Assembly: GCA_018992685.1 (NCBI GenBank)
Contig: JACVGT010000001.1
Span: 64,001 to 128,000, forward strand
Length of the DNA: 64,000 nucleotides
Direction of reading: 5' to 3'
Source: Theionarchaea archaeon
GTDB lineage: Archaea; Methanobacteriota_B; Thermococci; Methanofastidiosales; SZ-28-30
Shown in pieces: positions 26,653 through 37,460 of this stretch; the stretch's first letter is position 1, and every line of letters starts with the position of its first letter. Both the position numbers and the translations under genes were made by a program. The notes under the pieces are model-generated. The model searched no databases. It was not told the origin of the DNA and saw only the letters and a list, made by a program, of their open reading frames with translations.

Positions 26653-26668
26653 TTTTTTTCTTTTCTTT
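26653..26668 (+). terminator. Oligo-T terminator/attenuator after precursor A
   Basis: TTTTTTTCTTTTCTTT between the precursor and the ABC ATPase. Confidence 0.5.
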
Positions 26669-26681
26669 GTCTGGTGATACG

Positions 26682-27650
26682 ATGGAATACGTCATTGAAA
26701 CAAAAGATTTAGCCCGCGAATTCGATTCTGCAGAAGGCGTTCTCCTCAAGAAAAAGAGAAAAATCATAGCCGTTGATCACGTTACGTTCGGAGTGAGAAA
26801 GGGAGAATTATTCGGTCTCCTGGGCCCCAATGGAGCTGGAAAAACAACCACCATAAAGATGCTCACCACGCTACTTGTTCCCACTGAGGGAGATGCCTAT
26901 GTCCACGGCTGGCACGTGGTGAAAGAGGCGCAGAAGATTCGCAACCACATCAACGTCATATTTGGAGGGGAAAGAGGCTTGTACCTCCGATTGAGTGGAA
27001 AGGATAACCTGCGCTACTTCTCAGATCTCTATGGTGTTCCTGCCACCACACAGAAGGAACGAATCCCTGAACTTCTCCAGCTGGTGGGACTCGCAGAACA
27101 TGGGGAGAGAAAAGTGGAAACATACTCACGAGGCATGAAGCAGAGGTTGCACATTGCAAGGGGATTGATCAATGACCCTTCTATAATTTTCATGGACGAA
27201 CCCACAATTGGACTGGATCCAGAGGGAGCTCGTTCCCTGAGAGCAATCATACAAGGGCTGACTTCCAAGGATAAGACGATTTTCTTGACCACTCACTACA
27301 TGTTTGAGGCTGATGAACTCTGCACCAGGATTGCTCTTCTCAAGGAAGGGAAGATCTTAAAGATTGATACGCCAAAATCCTTCAAGAATGAGGTATCTCA
27401 CGTCACTATCATTGAAGCAGAGGGCCACCACATTCCCCGAGAGCTCATTGATGCATTAGAGGCACGTCAGACCGTACGAATGGTAACCACTTCTCAGCAG
27501 GACATGAACCAGGTCCTTCAGATCCAGACCGAACCCTCAACGGATGTAGTCATGGACATACTCCAGAGCCTGCACACAGCCCGGCTTTCTAACATCCACA
27601 TACGTGAGCCATCACTGGAGGACGCATACATCAAAATAATGCAGGGATAA
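26682..27650 (+). CDS. ABC-2 exporter ATP-binding subunit
   Basis: GPNGAGKTT, YSRGMKQR, MDEPTIGLD, TTH. Confidence 0.93.
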   Translation: MEYVIETKDLAREFDSAEGVLLKKKRKIIAVDHVTFGVRKGELFGLLGPNGAGKTTTIKMLTTLLVPTEGDAYVHGWHVVKEAQKIRNHINVIFGGERGLYLRLSGKDNLRYFSDLYGVPATTQKERIPELLQLVGLAEHGERKVETYSRGMKQRLHIARGLINDPSIIFMDEPTIGLDPEGARSLRAIIQGLTSKDKTIFLTTHYMFEADELCTRIALLKEGKILKIDTPKSFKNEVSHVTIIEAEGHHIPRELIDALEARQTVRMVTTSQQDMNQVLQIQTEPSTDVVMDILQSLHTARLSNIHIREPSLEDAYIKIMQG

Positions 27651-27652
27651 CC

Positions 27653-28429
27653 ATGGGTATGAGAACGATTTTTTCAGCTTCAAGACAGGCATTCTACGAA
27701 TTTCTGGCACGACCAGTATGGATTTTCGAAATGACTGTTTCTCCCTTTGTTTTTGCCACAGTTGCCTTGATCATGTTCAGGGACTCACCCTCAACCAATT
27801 CCACGTATATTGTAATGGCCGGGGGTATTATGGGAATGTGGGGAAGCACCCTCTTGGGTGCGGGTTATTCAGTGGTCATTGAACGATATTTTGGAACTTT
27901 ACAGTACTTGTTCGCCAGTCCCTCCTCCCTGGAAGAAATTATTGCAGGTAAAGCCCTCACCAGTGCCGTCATGGGGCTGTGGAATCTCGTTTTCGTCTTC
28001 CTGATTGCAATCATTCTCTTTGGAGTTGACATAGAGATTGCTCACCCTCTCACTTTCTTACTGGCATTGGGGTTGTGTCTCTTTTCTTTTTCAGCCCTGG
28101 GGATACTCTTGTCCACTCTGTTCGTATTGAGCCGTTCTGCTGCAGCTTTAGGAAATATTCTGGAGTTTGCTGCTTTTGTAGTATGTGGCATCATGTACCC
28201 TATCTCTTTCTTGCCTGTATGGATCCGTCCTCTCTCATACATTCTAACACCCACCTGGGGAGCTCAGGTATTGCGGTGGGCCGTGATAGAACCTCAGTTA
28301 GGGGAAGGGTTCTGGATTGGTGTCGCCATGATTGGTATACTCTCTTGTTCGTACATAGTGATTGGCCACTACCTATACTCCCGGATTGATTATCAGGTGC
28401 GAGTGACAGCCAGTTTGTGGAGGTTTTGA
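27653..28429 (+). CDS. ABC-2 exporter permease
   Basis: Six TM helices; ERYFGTL, CGIMYPISFLP. Confidence 0.9.
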   Translation: MGMRTIFSASRQAFYEFLARPVWIFEMTVSPFVFATVALIMFRDSPSTNSTYIVMAGGIMGMWGSTLLGAGYSVVIERYFGTLQYLFASPSSLEEIIAGKALTSAVMGLWNLVFVFLIAIILFGVDIEIAHPLTFLLALGLCLFSFSALGILLSTLFVLSRSAAALGNILEFAAFVVCGIMYPISFLPVWIRPLSYILTPTWGAQVLRWAVIEPQLGEGFWIGVAMIGILSCSYIVIGHYLYSRIDYQVRVTASLWRF

Positions 28430-28431
28430 TT

Positions 28432-29220
28432 ATGGATGCACTACGGGCAGCCTATAGCAGTGCAGTGTTCTCATACAAGGGGTTACTTACCTGGATAGAG
28501 CCCCGGAACTACATTGGGATGAAATTCATTGTGCCCCTCCTGCAAATGTCATTCTTTGCCTACGTAGCCAAGAATGCTGGAGGAGCAGAAGCCATGTCGT
28601 TCGCTGTGGTCGGCAATATGGTCCAGCTGTGTGCTGTTACATCGGTTCTGGGCATGTCAATGGCGGTGGGAATGGAACGGTATTTTGGCACCTTACCTCT
28701 TCTCCTCGTGAGTCCCACTAACAGGTTTGCCCTGTTTATGGGGCGTTCTGTCGTGTATGTGCTGGACGGGGTTACCAGCACCCTGGTGGGGCTGGCATAT
28801 GCGGTATTCCTTTTTGGTGTAGATTTTTCCCAAGCTAACCCTGTTCTCCTGGTGGTAATCTTTCTTGTTACATCCTTTGCCCTGTCAGGATTTGGACTGT
28901 TGATTGGAAGTCTGTCTTTGTACACGAGAGAAGTTGTGGCTGTGGCCAATGCATCGTATTTTGCTCTGTTAATCGTGTGTGGCGTGAATTTTCCGGTGAC
29001 AGAATTACCTCATGTCCTGCAAGGGCTTTCAAAAGTCCTCCCCTTGACATATGGCATCCAGGCGACACGAGAGGTGGTCCAGGGAGCTTCCTTCACAGAT
29101 GTACAGGGATTGATTGGAGCTGAAATTCTCTTTATGGGTGCCCTCCTCGTCGTTGGTTACTTCTTTTTCAGGTACTTTGAGCAAAAGGCTAAAAAGAAGG
29201 GCACCTTTGAGCTGATCTAG
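28432..29220 (+). CDS. ABC-2 exporter permease
   Basis: Six TM helices; ERYFGTL, CGVNFPVTELP; paralog of the preceding gene. Confidence 0.9.
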   Translation: MDALRAAYSSAVFSYKGLLTWIEPRNYIGMKFIVPLLQMSFFAYVAKNAGGAEAMSFAVVGNMVQLCAVTSVLGMSMAVGMERYFGTLPLLLVSPTNRFALFMGRSVVYVLDGVTSTLVGLAYAVFLFGVDFSQANPVLLVVIFLVTSFALSGFGLLIGSLSLYTREVVAVANASYFALLIVCGVNFPVTELPHVLQGLSKVLPLTYGIQATREVVQGASFTDVQGLIGAEILFMGALLVVGYFFFRYFEQKAKKKGTFELI

Positions 29221-29228
29221 GTGAGTGT

Positions 29229-29804
29229 ATGAAAGTCATGGGTATTGATTGTTCCCAGAAACGGAGAGATTCTACCGGTAGGCATCTCTTGCAGGTCGCA
29301 CTAGAGAAGATAGAATCTTATGCAATTACCACTGATGCCATCAGACTAATTGATTACACGCTGGAGTTGTGCACAGGCTGCAATCAGTGTGTGACAGGAG
29401 GTATGTGCCCCATTGACGATGATTTCGATAGCATCTGTGAAAGGGCTATCCCTGCTGATGCACTCCTTTTTGTGTCTCCAGTGTACTGGGGGAGATATCC
29501 CAGTATTCTGTCGTGCTTTATTGACAGGATGAGGAAGATCACAACAATGCCTCATCCTCTCTACAGGAAGAAGGCAGGCCTCATCGTTCAGACAGGGATC
29601 ACTGATACAGCACTGACTGTGGGCAGTTTTGGCCAGCTGTTCAGGTCGTTCAACATGATCAATGTCGTCGCCGTGGGACTTGGTATGATGGATTATGAGG
29701 GACGCCCATTAGAAGACAAGAATGCAATAGCTCTTGTCCAACTGGTGGGAGAGCGGTTAGTCATGGGACTGCAATCAGAAAAGATCAAAGAGATTTTCGG
29801 ATGA
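29229..29804 (+). CDS. Iron-sulfur flavoprotein / NADPH-dependent FMN reductase family
   Basis: CTGCNQC...CPIDDD cluster motif; ADALLFVSPVYWG...FIDR. Confidence 0.85.
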   Translation: MKVMGIDCSQKRRDSTGRHLLQVALEKIESYAITTDAIRLIDYTLELCTGCNQCVTGGMCPIDDDFDSICERAIPADALLFVSPVYWGRYPSILSCFIDRMRKITTMPHPLYRKKAGLIVQTGITDTALTVGSFGQLFRSFNMINVVAVGLGMMDYEGRPLEDKNAIALVQLVGERLVMGLQSEKIKEIFG

Positions 29805-31020
29805 AGACATAGGGAGTCACCAGTTCTCTGTAGGAGGGGAAAGGGTTTTCTTCTCGTATCCCTGTGCCCTCGATGGATTTCATCAGATCAAAAACATTCC
29901 CCTTCAGAACAAAAGGTGGTACTCTTCCCACAAAGTCTCCTTCTCTAACATAGTAGGCCCGCTTGATGTTAAAAACGTATTCTCCTGAGACAAGGTTTGC
30001 ACCCTTGTCATTGACAACTTCCTCAACAACCACACCAGTAAACTGGCTAAGAGAGTTGCTTCCTTCTTTGACCAGTACATTCCTGGGTCCAATCTTGGGC
30101 GGGGCCATGATTGAGGTGCGTACAGCATTCCCTGTGCTTTCTGTTCCATCAAGAAGCGCATGAAAATGATCATATAAGATGTGGGTCAAGATCCCGTTTT
30201 TTATTATTGGATATCTTCGTGACGGTATTCCCTCACCATCACAGAACGATGTCCTCACTCCTTCAGGGTACAGACCATCATCAAAAAGCGTGAACTCTTC
30301 TCCTGCCACATCTGTGCTACTGGCAATACGGGAAATCCCCCGTTTTACTCTGTCAACACTCACCTGCCAGATCAAGGGACGTAACACTGCATAGAGAGCC
30401 CGTGAACCCAGGGCAATGTGGGAAAATCTATATTCTGCATCCTGCGTGTAGCGGTCAATATACTCCTTGATACATCTCACAAGAGACTCACTGTCTCTAT
30501 CCCACAGCCGGGATGAGTTCACTATGTTGAACGTAGATGTTCCTGCTGATACGTCTATATCCAGCACGAAGAAGGTACTCTTTTCTTCAACATCAAGGCC
30601 TGCAGTCGTTTGCAGTGAGAAAGATGATTCTCTGCAGTATATCAACCCCTTTGAAGAAAGTCCGTGGTCCAAGAGCCCCTCGACGATTTCCATGCAATAG
30701 CCTGTGAGGTCCGTGATGTCAGCCCGCTCTATTTTCGGATCACAAATTCCTTCCACTGAGGGATATTTCTGCACTCCAGGAAACGCTATTTCCCACTGGT
30801 ACTCCGTGTCCAGAGCACGGGCAGACTGGAGAGCCTTCTCAACCTGTTCTGTTGTGTTACACGGCATGTTACAGTAATTGAACCCTACTTTGTTTCCCTT
30901 AATAACCCGGACTGCCTGCCCCGATACCTGCACTTTTTGGGGTGTCATTGTTCTTCCCTGGAACTCTACGATGGTATCGGTATACTTTCCCTGGAAAACC
31001 TCACTCTCACACGTACTCAC
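29785..31020 (-). CDS. pmbA: PmbA/TldE family protein
   Basis: FCDGEGIPS..YPIIKNGIL, STGNA.R, ANLVSGEY; no HExxxH; follows tldD. Confidence 0.82.
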   Translation of the reverse strand: MSTCESEVFQGKYTDTIVEFQGRTMTPQKVQVSGQAVRVIKGNKVGFNYCNMPCNTTEQVEKALQSARALDTEYQWEIAFPGVQKYPSVEGICDPKIERADITDLTGYCMEIVEGLLDHGLSSKGLIYCRESSFSLQTTAGLDVEEKSTFFVLDIDVSAGTSTFNIVNSSRLWDRDSESLVRCIKEYIDRYTQDAEYRFSHIALGSRALYAVLRPLIWQVSVDRVKRGISRIASSTDVAGEEFTLFDDGLYPEGVRTSFCDGEGIPSRRYPIIKNGILTHILYDHFHALLDGTESTGNAVRTSIMAPPKIGPRNVLVKEGSNSLSQFTGVVVEEVVNDKGANLVSGEYVFNIKRAYYVREGDFVGRVPPFVLKGNVFDLMKSIEGTGIREENPFPSYRELVTPYVFIRKSL

Positions 31021-32303
31021 GAAAGCACCTCCACCTCTGAGAATTTCAAGAACGGTGTCAAGCTAGATGATGGAATGAACTGTCGACCCTTTGAGCAGTG
31101 TCTCGTCACGAGTTCCCGTTCTTTTCCCACCCCCTCAAGGTGGGAAAGGATTTCATTCACATTTATTCTCATATTTACGTTACGCACAGAGTATCCCTCT
31201 ACGAGATGGTTCCCAGACTCTGCAACAAGAGACAGAACATCTTGTTCATACTGGAGTTCCGCTGCACCCAGGCTGTCAACAACAATATCAGCTCCTTCAC
31301 ATAGTTCTTCTGTGGATTGATTTCCAGGAAGAACCTGAATATTACTGGTTCGTACCAGGGGTGGACACAGGACACTCTCTGAAAGGGCATTGGCAGTGGG
31401 GTTACACGAGAGAGCACCTGCAGTTTCCCTTGAATGCAGCAAAGAGGTTAAGACGCCTTTTTTAATGACGGGAGTTCCTTCTGCCTTGACACCTTCATCA
31501 TCATAGGAATACTGGCCAAATGCGTTCTCCAGTAACGGGTCATCGATGCATGTGCAATCGTTTGAAGTGATCTCCTCTCCCAGATGGTCAGCCAGCACAC
31601 TCTCCCCTCTCAGCACTTTGTCGGCCTCGAGCCCATGCCCTACGACTTCGTGGATGAGAATTCCAGTAATTTCAGGGGCGAAAACGATGGTGTACTTTCC
31701 TGGGGAAGGCGAACCCACTTTCTTGGGGAATGTGTTCATTTTTTCCTGCAGCTTTCTTATGACCCGCTCCTCTGACAAGAATTCAAGACCATATGGCGCG
31801 ATCAAGAACCCTTCTCGGACGTAGTCTCCCATCAGGGCAAAAATGATTCCTGTGGCTGCTTCCTCTGTTTGAATATGTGATCCCTCCGAATTCTCAAAAA
31901 GGTCCATACTGTAATAGTCATTAAATCCCAGGTAGTAATGGTTAATCAGCGGATTCTCATCAATTCCAGATGATTCTACTAGTGTTCTTATTTCCCTGAT
32001 CTTTTCTTCGATTTCTGTGGTATGAGGAGGATATACTGCCTGCGACGGTTTATCGACGTGGTGGCAAGGACTTTCAGCCAGGACGGCACCCTGAAAGGGG
32101 AGTGATGCCGAGATTTCTTGTGCTCTCTCTATCAAGGTATGGGGGTCAGTTTCCCCCGAACGGGCATAAAACCCCCACCTCCCTGCAGCCAGCACTCGGG
32201 CAGATGCCCCTCGATTGCAGGTAGTGACGCACCGGACAATATGGCCATCCCGTACATCAATGGATGTTCTCCACAGGGTATTTGCTCTCAATTCAACGTG
32301 CAT
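31017..32303 (-). CDS. tldD: TldD family metalloprotease
   Basis: HEVVGHGLEAD zinc motif, YDDEGV, LLHSRETA, C-terminal CSKGRQ. Confidence 0.87.
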   Translation of the reverse strand: MHVELRANTLWRTSIDVRDGHIVRCVTTCNRGASARVLAAGRWGFYARSGETDPHTLIERAQEISASLPFQGAVLAESPCHHVDKPSQAVYPPHTTEIEEKIREIRTLVESSGIDENPLINHYYLGFNDYYSMDLFENSEGSHIQTEEAATGIIFALMGDYVREGFLIAPYGLEFLSEERVIRKLQEKMNTFPKKVGSPSPGKYTIVFAPEITGILIHEVVGHGLEADKVLRGESVLADHLGEEITSNDCTCIDDPLLENAFGQYSYDDEGVKAEGTPVIKKGVLTSLLHSRETAGALSCNPTANALSESVLCPPLVRTSNIQVLPGNQSTEELCEGADIVVDSLGAAELQYEQDVLSLVAESGNHLVEGYSVRNVNMRINVNEILSHLEGVGKERELVTRHCSKGRQFIPSSSLTPFLKFSEVEVLS

Positions 32304-32311
32304 AAATCCAC

Positions 32312-33400
32312 CTATGGGTACCTGCAGTCCTTCTCTGGGTCTATCAAAGCATATTCAGGAAATTTCCCGATATGATAGAAGGCCTGGCACATGGGGTAAG
32401 GAGCCAGAAGATCACCAAACTCAGCAAATGCCATGGCTCTGCAGAACCCGCCACAAATCCTGGCAGCATGACAGTTACCACACACACCTTTCAGGCTGGT
32501 TTTATTGGACTGATCCAGTATTTTGAACATGGGGTGTCTCTTTATTTCCTCAAACGTATTGATGCGCAGGTTTCCAGCTTTCATGTCAGGATGAAGTGAT
32601 AACGCTGTACATAGGCTGACATCTCCCTGGGGGGATACTCCCATGAGTTTCCACCACGGGCAGGTCACATACTCTTGGACATCGTCAATATTCTCTGCAG
32701 GCATCAACGCCAAGGGTAAATCTGTGATGATCCTCAGATCGTCGAGGTACTTTGCTTTTAGGTGAAAATAGGCTTGGAGCGTCTTTTCCACCAAGGTGAC
32801 ATCGGTGGGCTTTTCACCAGATCTACCAAGGGGAACAGTCTGCGCAAGAATTCGAAAAATGCTACATTCAGTTTCAATGCCAAGAGTGATAATCTCCTCT
32901 AACTGAGGAAGGTTTTCATGAGTGACATACGTGGAAATGCCGTGGTCAATATCATATTCTTGCAATAGATTCAGCCCGTTAACAGCTCTTTCAAAGGCAC
33001 CAGGACGCCCACGCTGGGCATCGTGGACGTGACCAATACCATCAATGCTCACCCCCACAGATGCATTCTTGTACTGGCTGAGCAACTGGGCAATTCCTGG
33101 TGTAATTAACGTCCCATTTGTTTCTAAGTTGAGGAGGACACCGCGTTCCAAGACGATGGTGAGTATTTCTTTGATATCTTTCCGTGCAAGAGGTTCTCCG
33201 CCTGTTATTGACACTTCAGCTAATTTGCCGTCTGATGCAACTGTGTCGATGATTGAAGCGACTTCTGCAGGCGTAATTTCATTTTCGAATGCTTTTCCAG
33301 GTCCTGCTTCCAGATAGCAGTGTTTACACGCCAGGTTACACTCTCTCGTCACAACAACATACAATCGGGAAAAGACTTTACCATTTCCAGGGGATTCCAT
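32312..33400 (-). CDS. Radical SAM/SPASM domain protein (no RRE)
   Basis: CNLACKHC, TGGEPL, ETNGT; SPASM cysteines C...GDVSLC...CGNC...CGGFCRA...C. Confidence 0.92.
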   Translation of the reverse strand: MESPGNGKVFSRLYVVVTRECNLACKHCYLEAGPGKAFENEITPAEVASIIDTVASDGKLAEVSITGGEPLARKDIKEILTIVLERGVLLNLETNGTLITPGIAQLLSQYKNASVGVSIDGIGHVHDAQRGRPGAFERAVNGLNLLQEYDIDHGISTYVTHENLPQLEEIITLGIETECSIFRILAQTVPLGRSGEKPTDVTLVEKTLQAYFHLKAKYLDDLRIITDLPLALMPAENIDDVQEYVTCPWWKLMGVSPQGDVSLCTALSLHPDMKAGNLRINTFEEIKRHPMFKILDQSNKTSLKGVCGNCHAARICGGFCRAMAFAEFGDLLAPYPMCQAFYHIGKFPEYALIDPEKDCRYP

Positions 33401-33547
33401 GAGAGAGACTCAATCCCGTAAGGTTAAAAGGTTATCTATAGTAAGGGTTGGAATAGAGAAGGAACGCAATGATATTTTAGGATGCTACTCCTTCACGGGG
33501 GTGTTACTCCTTCTCTGTTCCCTTCTTGTCATGATATTCAGCCTCCC

Positions 33548-34717
33548 TCAGCCCTGCCTGCGCTGTCTCAGAACTGATCGGACCAGCAATACTGCATTGA
33601 TACACAAGATTCCCAAGAATACAATGCTGTCATATGATGTTCTGACCTCTCCAGAGACTCTGGAAAGAGTTCCCACAATTCGTGGAACAACATAAGAGAG
33701 AAGAAACAATGCAGCGGCGATATTCCCGAGCACGAACACCACAGAGTACCCTCTAACGATACGCATCTCACGTTCCGGCACAGCAGAAAGGTCGTGGTAT
33801 GAAAAACGATCCCAGACTCTGTGTAATTTGTTGCCCAGAAAAGCCACCGTATCTCCAAAGAGATTCTTACAGTTGAAGTAGTTGGTGATAATGTAGTAGA
33901 CGTCAGTCTGCATAAAAAAGAGACACTGCCACAACGTGGAAATTAACTGCAAAAGGATGAAGGCCTTCAAAAATCTCAGGGCAACGTTATCCGACTCCCG
34001 GAAGATCCACATGATGATGAGAACCAGAGAAACAGTCACCAGGTCCGAAAGTATTCCCGCGAAGTACACCCTGTACCTCTTCTCTGCCGGCACTGTCCAT
34101 ACAGAGGTTATATCAGTTTCTGCCACGACAAAGTATAATCGATGGCTGATACGGAACTGGGCGTCCAGTCCTAAAGACTTTGCTGCTGCCAGATGGTAAA
34201 ACTCGTGCTTGAACACAAAGAGCCAGCTCACTGCAAAAGTAGTCAGCAATGCAACCGTATACGAGTCCACAAACATGAAGTCACCGAATTTGGGAAAGAA
34301 CTGGGGGGTTGTCAGAAGGATCATTCCCCCTAGAACCATTACTAGCGTATAAAAAACGTATGCTGGCTTTGAGAAAAGTATTTGGGCTTGTTCCGGTTTT
34401 AAATTTTCAAAGTATGCATGAATTTCCTCATGTTCAGTTTCGATCAGTTCATCATCAATTTTCTGGACGAATCCTACTTCTATCAGGCTTTCTATGAACT
34501 CTTCAAGTTCTACTTCTTCCCTGAATTTCTCTTCCAGGTTCTTTCTGGCTTCTCCTATAGTCAATCCCTTCTTGAGCAGGTTAATAGCTTCTACACCCAC
34601 CTCGGGTAGACTGATGAAAGAACCAATTTCCCTTCTGCCTACAATCCATTCTCCTTCCTGCAGACTCATGTCCAGAGGGTAGAATGTGATCACAGAATCC
34701 TTTTGCATGCCAGTCAC
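33548..34717 (-). CDS. RRE(PqqD-like)-fused M50 intramembrane metalloprotease
   Basis: N-terminal ~90-aa RRE-like wHTH (AINLLKKGLTIGEA...LEEFIESLIEVGFV); HEFYH, VYFAGILSD, FFMQTDVYY; multiple TMs. Confidence 0.8.
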   Translation of the reverse strand: MTGMQKDSVITFYPLDMSLQEGEWIVGRREIGSFISLPEVGVEAINLLKKGLTIGEARKNLEEKFREEVELEEFIESLIEVGFVQKIDDELIETEHEEIHAYFENLKPEQAQILFSKPAYVFYTLVMVLGGMILLTTPQFFPKFGDFMFVDSYTVALLTTFAVSWLFVFKHEFYHLAAAKSLGLDAQFRISHRLYFVVAETDITSVWTVPAEKRYRVYFAGILSDLVTVSLVLIIMWIFRESDNVALRFLKAFILLQLISTLWQCLFFMQTDVYYIITNYFNCKNLFGDTVAFLGNKLHRVWDRFSYHDLSAVPEREMRIVRGYSVVFVLGNIAAALFLLSYVVPRIVGTLSRVSGEVRTSYDSIVFLGILCINAVLLVRSVLRQRRQG

Positions 34718-36024
34718 TCAATCAACTCCAGGACTTCTCTTTTCGTTTCCTCATCTCCCCTTTTCAGCAGTTCTTTGATGATCAAGGCGGTAGCTGGGCA
34801 CCGGTAGGGATCTTTCTTGTAAAGAGTCTGATGATATGCAAGAGCATGACCCCTGCACCCCCCGCCGCAGAAGAATCTATGCTTACAGGTCTTGCAGGGT
34901 TCGACTTTATGCACATTCAAGCTGTACAACTCCTGAAGCACTTCTGAATGCTTCCAGATTTCCCGCAGTGTGGACTTTGTGATATTTCCCAGCCTTAATG
35001 ATTCATATTTGGTGAGCATACAGGGGTATACATCTCCTGCTGGCGTTATCACAGGGGACGTTCCAATGGAACACCGTTCTCTGGGGACTACCAGCATGCT
35101 GATTTCTCCCTCGTCTGTTTCATGGGTATAGCAGAAATGCTCACACATTTGCTGAGGAGTCAGTAACAATGCGCTGTTGAATCCCCTCCCTGTGGGAGAA
35201 ACGTTCGCACTGCTGAGAGGGACTCCCAGTTCTTGTCCTAACCTATAAAGAGCATCCAGTTCATGAAAATTCTCCCTGGTGAGCACAGAACTGATAGAGA
35301 CATCAATATCGACTTCCTTCAAAGCCCTCATACCCTGTATTGCTTTCTTGAATCCTCCCTTCATCCCTCTGATAGCATCATGAGTCTCTGGATTGGCTCC
35401 ATCAAGACTTACCTGAACACTGTGGATTCCCGCTTCTTTGAGCTGGTGAGCGACCGTTCGATTGATCAATGTGCCATTGGTTAGGAGGTTAGGCTTCAAC
35501 CCTGCAGCATTCACCTTTCTTATCATGTGTAAGGTCAGATCTTTCTTGAGCAGAGGTTCGCCCCCCGTGATGGTAACAGGAGTAACCTGCAATGAGATGG
35601 CCTCATCCAGCACCCTGTCAATCTCCTCTTTATTGAGTTCATTGTGGTCGGGAGCTCCTGCACTGGAAGCACAGAATTTGCAGTGCTCATTGCACCGGTA
35701 CGTGACTTCAATATTGAGAGATGAAGGGCAGCTATAGTCATAAACAGGTTTTATGAAAGAGGGGGTCTGGCAGAGGGCCAGGATATTTTCATGTTCCAAA
35801 TACTCCATGAAAGGAGTGACAGCTTTTTCAACATCTCCTGGCGATTCACCATACTGCTCCGACAGAATACGTATCAAATCCTCATACGTGTGGGTGCCAT
35901 CACACAGCTGCAGGACTGCCTGGGCAGTTTCATCAACTCTGAAGATAGCCGAATCCAGCAGCAAGTAGTTACCTTTGCTGGTATTCCTGATAAATACCTG
36001 ATCTCTCACTCGTATGTACGCCAT
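34714..36024 (-). CDS. RRE(PqqD)-fused radical SAM/SPASM peptide maturase
   Basis: N-terminal PqqD-like DETAQAVLQLCDGTHTYEDLIRILSEQY; CNEHCKFC; SPASM CSIG...GDVYPC...CKTC...CGGGC...C. Confidence 0.92.
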   Translation of the reverse strand: MAYIRVRDQVFIRNTSKGNYLLLDSAIFRVDETAQAVLQLCDGTHTYEDLIRILSEQYGESPGDVEKAVTPFMEYLEHENILALCQTPSFIKPVYDYSCPSSLNIEVTYRCNEHCKFCASSAGAPDHNELNKEEIDRVLDEAISLQVTPVTITGGEPLLKKDLTLHMIRKVNAAGLKPNLLTNGTLINRTVAHQLKEAGIHSVQVSLDGANPETHDAIRGMKGGFKKAIQGMRALKEVDIDVSISSVLTRENFHELDALYRLGQELGVPLSSANVSPTGRGFNSALLLTPQQMCEHFCYTHETDEGEISMLVVPRERCSIGTSPVITPAGDVYPCMLTKYESLRLGNITKSTLREIWKHSEVLQELYSLNVHKVEPCKTCKHRFFCGGGCRGHALAYHQTLYKKDPYRCPATALIIKELLKRGDEETKREVLELIE

Positions 36025-36327
36025 TCTATCACCTCTTGGGAGAAGGGAAGTACCTCCATGCAGTCGAGTCTTGTCTGCTCCAGATTTAACATGGGGCTAC
36101 GCGGGCTGTCTGCCTTTTTCCTGATTTTCTGATAGATATGAATTTCGTCTTACACCCTCTCTCTTCTGATTGATGAAATATACTCAATGGTTAGTTATTT
36201 GAATCTATGCTCTGAAAGATGTAACAATACCATCTCCTGCGCGTGCCGCCCAACCTTACCAGTTAAAAATCACCTGCAGTGAACCCCCAAAGCATCTTCT
36301 CTCATCATTATGTAATGGTTTTGACTC

Positions 36328-36351
36328 AAAAAAAAGAAAGATCAAAAAAAA
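36328..36351 (-). terminator. Oligo-T terminator after precursor B
   Basis: Two long A tracts on + strand directly downstream of the stop at 36360. Confidence 0.6.
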
Positions 36352-36359
36352 CGAGAGTT

Positions 36360-36449
36360 TTAGAGACAGACCATCTTGGATTCCTTCCATACGTTGTCAG
36401 TGAAGGCTGTGGTCTTTTTCTTTTCAAGCTTTCTGACGGCAATTGACAT
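36360..36449 (-). CDS. Putative RiPP precursor peptide B (29 aa)
   Basis: Below the ORF-track cutoff. GGAGGTG RBS 6 nt upstream; MSIAVRKLEKKKTTAFTDNVWKESKMVCL; own promoter and terminator; directly upstream of the RRE-rSAM. Confidence 0.75.
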   Translation of the reverse strand: MSIAVRKLEKKKTTAFTDNVWKESKMVCL

Positions 36450-36494
36450 GGTTTACACCTCCTTTGGTTGGATGTGGGCTCTTCTCGTTATGAG

Positions 36495-36509
36495 TATTTA
36501 AGTCTTTCC
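36495..36509 (-). promoter_or_regulatory. BRE/TATA promoter of precursor B
   Basis: Minus strand GGAAAGA-CTTAAATA about 45 nt upstream of ATG 36449. Confidence 0.55.
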
Positions 36510-37046
36510 ATATGAAATTATGGAACACATATATTATAAGTAATAAATTAGCATCTCTTTGTAATATTGATCTCTGATTTTTTTTAATATAGTCAAGCTG
36601 ATGCCCGAGACAGTCATTGATGGTACGATTCTTTTTTTTGAAGAAAAGGGGCCATTAGTCATGTTCGCACGTGATACGATTGAAAGAGTACTAGGAGATC
36701 ACAAAGAGAAATTGAGACAGTTCTTGTGTATCGTGGATTCTCCTGCGAATATGAGATCACTGATGCTATGTAGACCTGATAAATTGGCTTATTCAATTCG
36801 GATAACGCCAATTATCCGCACTCAGTTCTTTTCCTTCACATCTGGACCCTTCTCTGGCATCCTGATGGAGTTCCTTCAAATCTGAAACACGGTTTCCCAG
36901 TATCACCATCTCAGTTCAACCTAGAAAGCATATTTCTTGAGGCTCCAGATTGAGAAACGACATCCTGGTATTCTACGGGAAAGTGGTGTGGAGAATGCTA
37001 TGCCATGCCAGATGCCACGGAAAACTACTTCTCAATCTTTTGTTTC

Positions 37047-37460
37047 TCATGCAACTGTGAAGATGAGAACGACATCACCATGAGCATCTGTCAATTCCAA
37101 TGTAGCACTGACAATGACATATCCTTCTACTGATTCCAAAACTTGCAGAAAGTCAAGTTCCTGTTCCATTACTCCTTCAGGTTCACTACAGTACATTTCA
37201 GTGACCCCAACAGGGCCGAATTCGATGTGCCCTTTATTAGCAGTGTATTCCGAAAAATAGGAATTGCACCCTGCATCTCCTGTAATTCTGCCGTCCTGAA
37301 ATTGAGCAGTGATTCTGGTGTCCCGCAGAACAGTGACCAGTCCCGTCTCAGTTCTGTAAGAGTCCAAGATCCATATGTTACCTTCCAGGGATATAGGTTT
37401 CTGACCGATACATCCTATTGCCAAACCCAGAAAAATAATCACCAATGAGGACTTCTTCAT
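37047..37460 (-). CDS. META/HslJ-domain lipoprotein
   Basis: Lipobox-like LAIGC; GDAGCNSY...TEMYC...MEQE. Confidence 0.88.
   Translation of the reverse strand: MKKSSLVIIFLGLAIGCIGQKPISLEGNIWILDSYRTETGLVTVLRDTRITAQFQDGRITGDAGCNSYFSEYTANKGHIEFGPVGVTEMYCSEPEGVMEQELDFLQVLESVEGYVIVSATLELTDAHGDVVLIFTVA

Follow-up and report, generated by a model that had tools for sequence, protein, structure and literature searches.

The element considered here is a micro-gene on the minus strand of a 64-kb stretch of DNA from a Theionarchaea archaeon, which is called the window throughout and corresponds to G000:C7:64001-128000 in the organism's own genome (G000, an assembly of 3.03 Mb in 45 contigs). The gene comprises 29 codons and a stop (36360..36449) and lies upstream of two genes of the same strand, one for a radical S-adenosylmethionine (rSAM) maturase (34714..36024) and one for a predicted M50-like intramembrane metalloprotease (33548..34717), whose products both appear to begin with a recognition element (RRE) of peptides that are synthesized by ribosomes and modified after translation (RiPPs). 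Read from 36449 to 36360, the frame translates to MSIAVRKLEKKKTTAFTDNVWKESKMVCL followed by a stop, exactly where an earlier reading of the bare letters (the original prediction) had placed an unannotated precursor peptide. The ATG is the single possible start, because a stop sits just before the preceding codon and the frame thus opens one codon upstream. A Shine-Dalgarno sequence, GGAGGTG (36456..36462, minus strand), stands 6 nt 5' of the ATG as part of the sequence AGGAGGTG, which is invariant in three orthologous loci; the heptamer itself occurs 15 times in the window, both strands summed. Approximately 45-58 nt 5' of the ATG, a box resembling a B recognition element and a TATA element (36494..36507, minus strand) reads AAAGAC and then TTAAATAC, a position from which archaeal transcription would be expected to begin some 20-25 nt upstream of the start codon. 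DNA alignment showed the block GGAAAGAyTTAAATA to be common to the window and to one orthologous locus (L028), and a different A/T-rich box in another (L029). Within 35 nt 3' of the stop lie two T8 runs (36351-36344 and 36335-36328, minus strand), predicted to form an archaeal-type oligo-T terminator; minus-strand runs of at least T8 number three in the whole window, two of which are those behind the peptide gene, and T-rich tracts follow the stop in the window, L028 and L029 alike. Ribosome-binding site, promoter box and terminator had all been named beforehand, and all three held up. A scan for sigma-70 promoters and hairpins gave nothing relevant, both being signal types that do not apply to archaea, and there was no Rfam match at E<=1 within 35900-37100.

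The peptide belongs to a family that extends well beyond this locus. Searching its own genome returned two paralogs, MKFNVKKVESISTTAVAPAAKNPWKETKMQCL on contig 19 and a peptide of 32-35 aa on contig 3. When a three-peptide profile was run over 61 relatives, G000, G001 and G002 alone matched it over the full length (E<=2.1e-12), the 11 other genomes that reached E<=1 giving partial matches only (E 0.14-0.81). Of the 133 genomes searched in the phylum, three passed E<=0.01; these all belong to one genus and contribute six peptides. A profile of these six peptides, run against 1.84 billion representative proteins, retrieved 38 matches at E<=1e-3, 13 of them at E<=1e-10 and the best at E 2.4e-17; all but one of these (37 of 38) are peptides, 29-65 aa long and built alike, and the exception, a 226-aa repeat protein, was rejected as spurious. 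The leader type of the window peptide, MSIxVRKLE, was found in six representatives (P0020, P0028, P0032, P0034, P0036 and P0038), P0020 differing from the window peptide at three positions. Neither Pfam nor NCBIfam gave a family for these peptides, one 65-aa representative giving a chance-level match (E 0.046).

Alignment of 43 peptides (that of the window, 36 representatives and six read from loci, those of L029 and P0036 being identical) resolved three parts. Four residues, E9, W21, K25 and C28, are invariant, and at least 90% of the sequences share M1, K7, T13, T14, K22 and E23. Residues 1-14 (MSIAVRKLEKKKTT; 36408..36449, minus strand) form a basic, conserved leader ending in TT. A hypervariable linker follows (residues 15-20, AFTDNV; 36390..36407, minus strand), without any conserved column and varying in length from approximately 5 to 14 residues across the family. 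The peptide ends in a conserved C-terminal motif (residues 21-29, WKESKMVCL; 36363..36389, minus strand), the proposed modification site, whose family consensus is (P/V/I)-W-K-E-small-K-x-(Q/N/V)-C-hydrophobic, so written in the window peptide that the conserved target is W21-K22-E23-x-K25-x-x-C28-L29; most family members contain a single Cys. The original prediction had proposed two aromatic-X-X motifs as sites of modification, and these parted company in the alignment. W-K-E stands, with its Trp invariant and its Lys and Glu each conserved in at least 90% of the 43 peptides, while F-T-D was rejected, as it falls in the hypervariable linker and is not conserved and is therefore unlikely to be a required modification site.

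The surroundings of the gene are conserved together with the peptide. Both paralogs lie directly upstream of a PqqD-rSAM/SPASM gene (L002 and L003, with the wider context in L004 and L005); the contig-19 cassette (G000:C19; L004 7975-10866) comprises a precursor, one rSAM and one M50-like gene, and that on contig 3 (G000:C3; L005 4988-10706) one precursor, three tandem PqqD-rSAM/SPASM genes and then an RRE-M50-like gene. A metagenome scan with the window's maturase gave four loci from 45 pattern matches. L028 encodes an rSAM protein 72% identical to that of the window over 436 aa and L029 one that is 61% identical; of the remaining two, one matches partially (26%) and the other is a fragment of 22 residues. 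L028 and L029 each encode a peptide of 29 or 30 aa that belongs to the window's subtype and whose gene ends 43 nt before the rSAM start, and an M50-like gene follows the rSAM gene. Hence the stand-alone precursor gene that had been proposed in front of the maturase recurs, as a triad of peptide, PqqD-rSAM and RRE-M50 genes, in every locus that could be read through, and the peptide is kept at syntenic positions in the paralogous loci, L028 and L029, where its loss would have spoken against the proposal. The distance from peptide stop to rSAM start is 335 nt in the window versus 43 nt in L028 and L029. The approximately 290 extra nt correspond to a spacer peculiar to the window (36025..36327, minus strand), which separates the terminator of the peptide gene from the ribosome-binding site of the rSAM gene; L028 and L029 lack it, it occurs nowhere else in G000 and it has no Rfam match. 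In variant contigs its part 36080-36169 is replaced and the whole stretch is shorter.

Codon comparisons pointed in the same direction. Between the window and L028 there are seven synonymous and three nonsynonymous changes, corresponding to 0.060 nonsynonymous substitutions per nonsynonymous site (dN) and 0.458 synonymous substitutions per synonymous site (dS); against L029, for which dS is saturated, there are 11 synonymous and eight nonsynonymous changes, four of the latter in residues 16-19. Such a pattern is expected where a frame is translated and kept by purifying selection. The window DNA is present in marine-sediment metagenomes, a search of sequencing runs returning DNA and no RNA run, and reads from four DNA runs differed from it at no fewer than 40 places: among the 40 listed, none falls in 36360-36475, which covers the frame and its Shine-Dalgarno sequence, with 20 in 36207-36359 and nine in 36476-36520. 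This distribution is a weak hint at best; a second, more divergent contig carries 15 differences over 36346-36473. Judged from sequence, the profile matches to 37 peptide clusters, the substitution pattern and the conserved translation and termination signals establish the micro-gene as real, selected and translated-looking, not as a chance open reading frame (ORF).

The maturase downstream (36024..34714, minus strand; 436 aa) carries the PqqD-type RRE (residues 25-82), Radical_SAM (105-262) and SPASM (322-381) domains expected from the original prediction, with Radical_SAM and SPASM both above the Pfam cut-offs. Across five paralogous RRE-rSAM proteins the CxxxCxxC motif (C111, C115 and C118) is invariant, as are seven SPASM cysteines (C318, C335, C377, C380, C386, C390 and C409), a number, seven and not eight, that would be consistent with an auxiliary-cluster site left open for a thiol of the substrate. 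The closest solved structure by sequence is PqqE (PDB 6c8v, E 2.5e-24). Comparison with NCBIfam gave 102 matches, 25 of which are listed, and among the matches listed no model of a characterised maturase reached its cut-off on either of the window's two rSAM proteins. There, the top score of the RRE-bearing enzyme was to WgkB (NF050035; 169.5 bits, cut-off 650, the best stretch covering only residues 97-298, in the rSAM core), and it scored 167 bits against MftC (TIGR03962, cut-off 265), 145.2 against PqqE (TIGR02109, cut-off 381.35) and 132.1 against StsB (NF045574, cut-off 625). Compared separately, the YydG model (TIGR04078) gave 54 bits against a cut-off of 300 (G000:C7:99014-99721, window 35014-35721). 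Among the listed NCBIfam matches, the SkfB, PapB and AlbA models matched the second rSAM protein only, all below cut-off, and no cyclophane-forming (3-CyFE) rSAM family appeared. SPASM proteins are abundant in the sister genomes G001 and G002 (2.5-2.8 Mb): at E<=1e-20 the RRE-rSAM/SPASM protein has 23 matches in the former and 21 in the latter, tandem arrays of RRE-less copies included; this number of maturases is an unusually large expansion for the genome size.

A short RRE-binding leader at the N-terminus had been postulated, and modelling of the peptide with the 34714-36024 enzyme, which the original prediction had proposed as a check, lent it support. The full-length RRE-rSAM protein (an alignment of five) was folded together with the peptide (an alignment of 42 rows), both alignments being self-made. 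The complex scored 0.79 (runs 0.57, 0.79 and 0.80) versus 0.01 for the best of three controls, with a peptide shorter than those of the calibration set; 116 of 157 solved complexes and two of 215 mismatched pairs attained this mark. The runs agreed in at least 60% of contacts, with a predicted local distance difference test (pLDDT) value of at least 56 for the partner. In the model, peptide residues 1-15, 17 and 19 contact rSAM residues 21-37 and 54-79 of the RRE, with further contacts at rSAM residues 260, 269-272, 299-313 and 424-426; the tightest pairs join peptide residues 3-8 to RRE residues 27-34 (expected error 0.9-1.6 Å). The pairing amounts to the addition of a strand to the RRE sheet in its usual form. 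Docking of the leader on the RRE of the maturase is thus supported by the model, in agreement with the conservation of residues 1-14.

The third gene of the triad overlaps the rSAM gene by 4 nt and encodes a protein of 389 aa, for which motif, profile and fold evidence could be gathered. The motif H171-E172-x-x-H175 is invariant in nine relatives. Seven of these nine match Peptidase_M50 (PF02163) at E<=1, the best at E 8.3e-6 and below the gathering score (the L005 copy, for instance, scores 20.2 bits versus a cut-off of 27.2), and the window copy has no PF02163 match at E<=1. A PqqD profile matched six of the nine relatives weakly and the window copy at E 0.067, and alignment by hhalign of the first 95 residues with the rSAM PqqD domains gave a probability of 85.6% (E 5.6e-6). 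The AlphaFold model has a mean pLDDT of 70; Foldseek found no PDB match to it at E<=0.001, returning only RRE rows at probability 0.96-0.99. In a wide search with VIA-align, residues 8-86 superposed on the RRE of a lasso-peptide B1 protein (Z 10.5, root-mean-square deviation 2.0, 79 residues aligned), on TbiB1 (Z 10.0) and on PqqD (Z 9.0), while residues 100-287 superposed on SpoIVFB (Z 9.1, 128 aligned, deviation 4.5), an RseP orthologue (Z 8.6, 125 aligned, deviation 3.5) and the Methanocaldococcus jannaschii site-2 protease MjS2P (Z 6.6), Z values of this size being middling for helical proteins according to the notes of the tool. Motif, weak profile match and modelled fold combined identify the membrane protein as a predicted M50-like protease, and the second RRE, postulated for this gene beforehand, is borne out by the RRE fold at its N-terminus.

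Fourteen orthologs of this protein, 58-93% identical, were present in the protein collection, and relatives occur in metagenome-assembled genomes (MAGs) named Theionarchaea archaeon and uncultured Thermococci archaeon. A scan of genome contigs with the M50-like alignment gave four loci, two of which, in Theionarchaea/Thermococci MAGs, end before the position of the peptide. RRE-M50-like relatives of approximately 30% identity were observed in a Nanoarchaeota MAG (L024 8001-9419) and in a Woesearchaeota MAG (L025 6891-8309). None of the six flanking ORFs scanned in L024 encodes an rSAM protein, the neighbours including a rhomboid protease and a histidine kinase, and the L025 relative likely serves another substrate. 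Bacterial proteins annotated as 'PqqD family protein' or 'M50 family metallopeptidase' share the same domain fusion at approximately 360-405 aa. The atlas feature scores of 0.95-0.97 to such PqqD-M50 clusters, mostly from Bacillota and Actinomycetota, express similarity of features and not an alignment; a 'PqqD family protein' of Cohnella is 25% identical to the window protein. Given these bacterial clusters of the same length, the present lineage is thus not alone in having an RRE-M50 fusion.

Further genes adjoin the triad. An accessory module specific to this locus (29785..33400, minus strand), 147 nt from the M50-like gene, consists by Pfam assignment of a second, RRE-less rSAM/SPASM gene (33400..32312), a TldD-like gene (32303..31017) and a TldE/PmbA-like gene (31020..29785). 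None of the three genes follows the cassette in L028 or in L029, and the module was accordingly rejected as part of the conserved cassette; adjacency suggests a link to this peptide, and the module probably represents an extra tailoring or leader-trimming function specific to this copy. The 147-nt gap (33401-33547, minus strand) holds GGGAGG followed by a 9-codon ORF, and no precursor-like ORF for the rSAM2-TldD-TldE module was recognised. On the plus strand, convergent with the end of the cluster, lie genes for an ABC ATPase and two ABC-2 permeases (26667-29220), then a gene resembling a flavin mononucleotide reductase (29229-29804). The ABC genes, which could serve export or immunity, are absent from L028 and L029. 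Upstream of the peptide gene stands a META-domain lipoprotein-like gene (37047-37460, minus strand), and between the two a 94-aa ORF without family match (36601-36885, plus strand). Response-regulator, PAS, GAF and DUF835 proteins are encoded just beyond the cassette in two of the five loci read through (L004 863-7781 and L028 9609-12209), which hints weakly at a possible connection of the peptides with signalling.

Taking these data as a whole, we consider it very probable that the micro-gene is a genuine RiPP precursor gene whose product is the substrate of the adjoining rSAM enzyme, with docking of the leader, modification of the conserved motif and cleavage by the M50-like protease. By adding a beta-strand to it, the basic leader (residues 1-14) would dock on the N-terminal, PqqD-type RRE of the rSAM/SPASM enzyme, which would abstract a hydrogen and install at least one radical-mediated intramolecular link within W21-K22-E23-x-K25-x-x-C28. 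The intramembrane, site-2-protease-like M50 enzyme might then bind the same leader via its own cytosolic RRE, cleave the leader off at the membrane and possibly release the product there; cross-link, cleavage and export are steps that we infer. The oligo-T tract behind the peptide gene would let the precursor be made in excess over the enzymes, and at this locus the second rSAM and TldD/E-like proteins may add tailoring or leader trimming.

As regards the bond formed, the original prediction had listed cyclophane, Lys/Trp and thioether chemistry side by side, and two kinds of link stand on an equal footing. A thioether from Cys28 to the side-chain or alpha carbon of Lys25 or Glu23 has about an even prospect, and so has a C-C link from Trp21 to Lys25, in the i/i+4 manner of streptide, or to Glu23, as in a three-residue cyclophane. 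That Trp, Lys and Cys are invariant together is most readily accounted for if two links form, or if a single link is accompanied by a positioning role; the occurrence of both the thioether and the C-C link in one product is doubtful in our estimate, and the absence of either, with for example an epimerisation in their place, is somewhat less probable again.

Three other explanations were weighed against a cross-linked RiPP, two of which accept the gene. Like PqqA or MftA, the peptide might give rise to a small cofactor or redox molecule, with only Trp, Lys, Cys and Glu of the invariant motif kept and the rest degraded by proteases. A short conserved C-terminal motif recalls PqqA and MftA, the maturase finds its best full-length matches in PqqE and in the MftC and PqqE models, and TldD/E-like proteases lie at this very locus. 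The same MftC and PqqE scores fall far under their cut-offs, however, no cofactor-dependent enzyme is conserved beside the cassette, and the family, confined to one genus among the phylum genomes searched, occurs in one genome as three paralogous cassettes with distinct leaders and matching private RREs, which looks like diversified natural products; we regard a cofactor as improbable. The same low probability attaches to the view that the rSAM protein is a peptide epimerase of an epipeptide-like cassette (peptide, rSAM, M50 protease and ABC-2 transporter) with a linear product containing D-amino acids. The triad of peptide, rSAM and membrane M50 protein reproduces the Epe/Yyd layout, EpeP being described in the review PMC10885120 as the M50 protease of epipeptides, and an ABC ATPase with two ABC-2 permeases lies nearby. 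These ABC genes, however, are on the other strand and missing from both orthologous loci, the YydG model score stays far below its cut-off, and an epimerase would have no need of invariant Trp, Lys and Cys.

The third explanation, that of a chance open frame or of a non-coding regulatory leader of the rSAM operon, draws on the shortness of an ORF that is known here from DNA alone, which also counts against the favoured RiPP precursor. It is contradicted by conservation at the amino-acid level, with synonymous changes dominating leader and motif, by 37 independent peptide clusters with E-values down to 2.4e-17, by the Shine-Dalgarno sequence kept at a fixed distance from the ATG and by the lack of an Rfam match; its probability is accordingly very small, well below that of the other two. 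Several further observations weigh against the precursor reading itself. A conserved C-terminal motif and a variable middle are the reverse of the usual 'variable core' pattern, and since no NCBIfam maturase cut-off is reached, similarity points to no one chemistry. Coupling of peptide to enzyme may be looser here, where 335 nt with two T8 runs part the two genes, and no ortholog of this locus was found in either sister genome (best rSAM match 42%; genomes 88% and 84% complete). As for the complex model, it does not place residues 20-29 confidently, a peptide of fewer than 30 residues lies outside the calibration of the tool, and the pass may in part reflect likeness to related leader-RRE complexes that have been solved.

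If the RiPP precursor reading holds, the cassette might represent a new archaeal RiPP class, the first from a Theionarchaea-like lineage, in which one RRE-SPASM enzyme makes a compact, possibly bicyclic Trp/Lys/Cys ring of an undescribed cross-link type or topology and an RRE-guided site-2-type protease couples leader removal to release; this full proposal is tentative and, taken as a whole, we think it rather unlikely. To our knowledge, few archaeal radical-SAM RiPPs have been characterised, and the nearest paper that turned up deals with a Cys-rich protein substrate in Methanococcus. The literature outside subscription journals and supplements yielded no description of the peptide family or of an RRE-M50 fusion in rSAM RiPPs, and the family, absent also from the curated collections Pfam and NCBIfam, is undescribed in this sense. 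A term search of PMC12710340 found no mention of M50, archaea, metalloprotease, site-2 or membrane. Whatever the bond, these uncultured marine-sediment archaea, with more than 20 SPASM paralogs per genome, present a compact and testable three-gene cassette of a 29-35 aa peptide, one RRE-SPASM enzyme and one RRE-M50 protease. A natural alignment of more than 40 substrates pinpoints three invariant residues and offers a direct route to a possibly new cross-link, and with the cassette one could examine how RiPP substrates are selected by an intramembrane protease through an RRE.

Compared with systems already characterised, this one appears from its domains and motifs to work like an RRE-dependent rSAM RiPP, with a co-oriented short ORF beside a PqqD-bearing rSAM gene, CxxxCxxC and a seven-Cys SPASM domain, but it stays under the cut-off of every specific characterised family tested. 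PqqE and MftC are nearest by sequence, neither cut-off being reached. With the pyrroloquinoline quinone and mycofactocin pathways (PqqA/D/E; MftA/B/C) the cassette shares a PqqD-type RRE and a SPASM rSAM enzyme acting on a conserved C-terminal motif; here, in contrast, RRE and enzyme form one protein, paralogous cassettes occur several to a genome, and no PqqB/C- or MftD/E/F-like genes lie nearby. Sactipeptide and ranthipeptide maturases (CteB, SkfB, PapB and StsB, and the archaeal CrpC) likewise combine RRE, rSAM and SPASM with an invariant substrate Cys, and a donor Cys is present in the core here (C28, invariant in 43 peptides). According to PMC13692751, CrpC is an archaeal SPASM enzyme that installs thioethers, its substrate being a Cys-rich protein. 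CrpA, however, is a large Cys-rich protein and not a 29-aa peptide. A conserved aromatic-X-X motif, as in triceptides, is provided by W-K-E and not by F-T-D.

In substrate logic the cassette resembles the streptococcal rSAM RiPPs with short motifs. StrB/SuiB forms a Lys-Trp link, WgkB a Trp-Lys link and NxxcB a Cys-Asn thioether. The spacing of W21 and K25 is the i/i+4 spacing of the streptide pair and K25-x-x-C28 resembles that of NxxC, and the order and spacing of the window motif set it apart from the KxxxW and WGK motifs. Streptide-type systems share an RRE-SPASM rSAM enzyme whose target is a short conserved motif close to the C-terminal end of an approximately 30-aa peptide, and the conserved Trp and Lys typical of the WgkB and streptide types are found here as the invariant W21 and K25; the family names are those listed in PMC11851443. 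The Trp/Lys order is nevertheless reversed, the precursors have no sequence relation, and RRE and M50 are fused in the protease. The system nearest in gene layout is the epipeptide cassette EpeX/EpeE/EpeP (YydF/G/H) of Bacillus subtilis, in which YydG is the rSAM epimerase. It shares with the archaeal triad a small precursor, an rSAM enzyme and a membrane M50 metalloprotease thought to cleave and export the peptide, EpeP being the M50 protease of epipeptides according to PMC10885120. What distinguishes the archaeal cassette is its host, together with an N-terminal RRE on both enzymes, a full seven-Cys SPASM domain and a substrate with invariant Trp, Lys and Cys.

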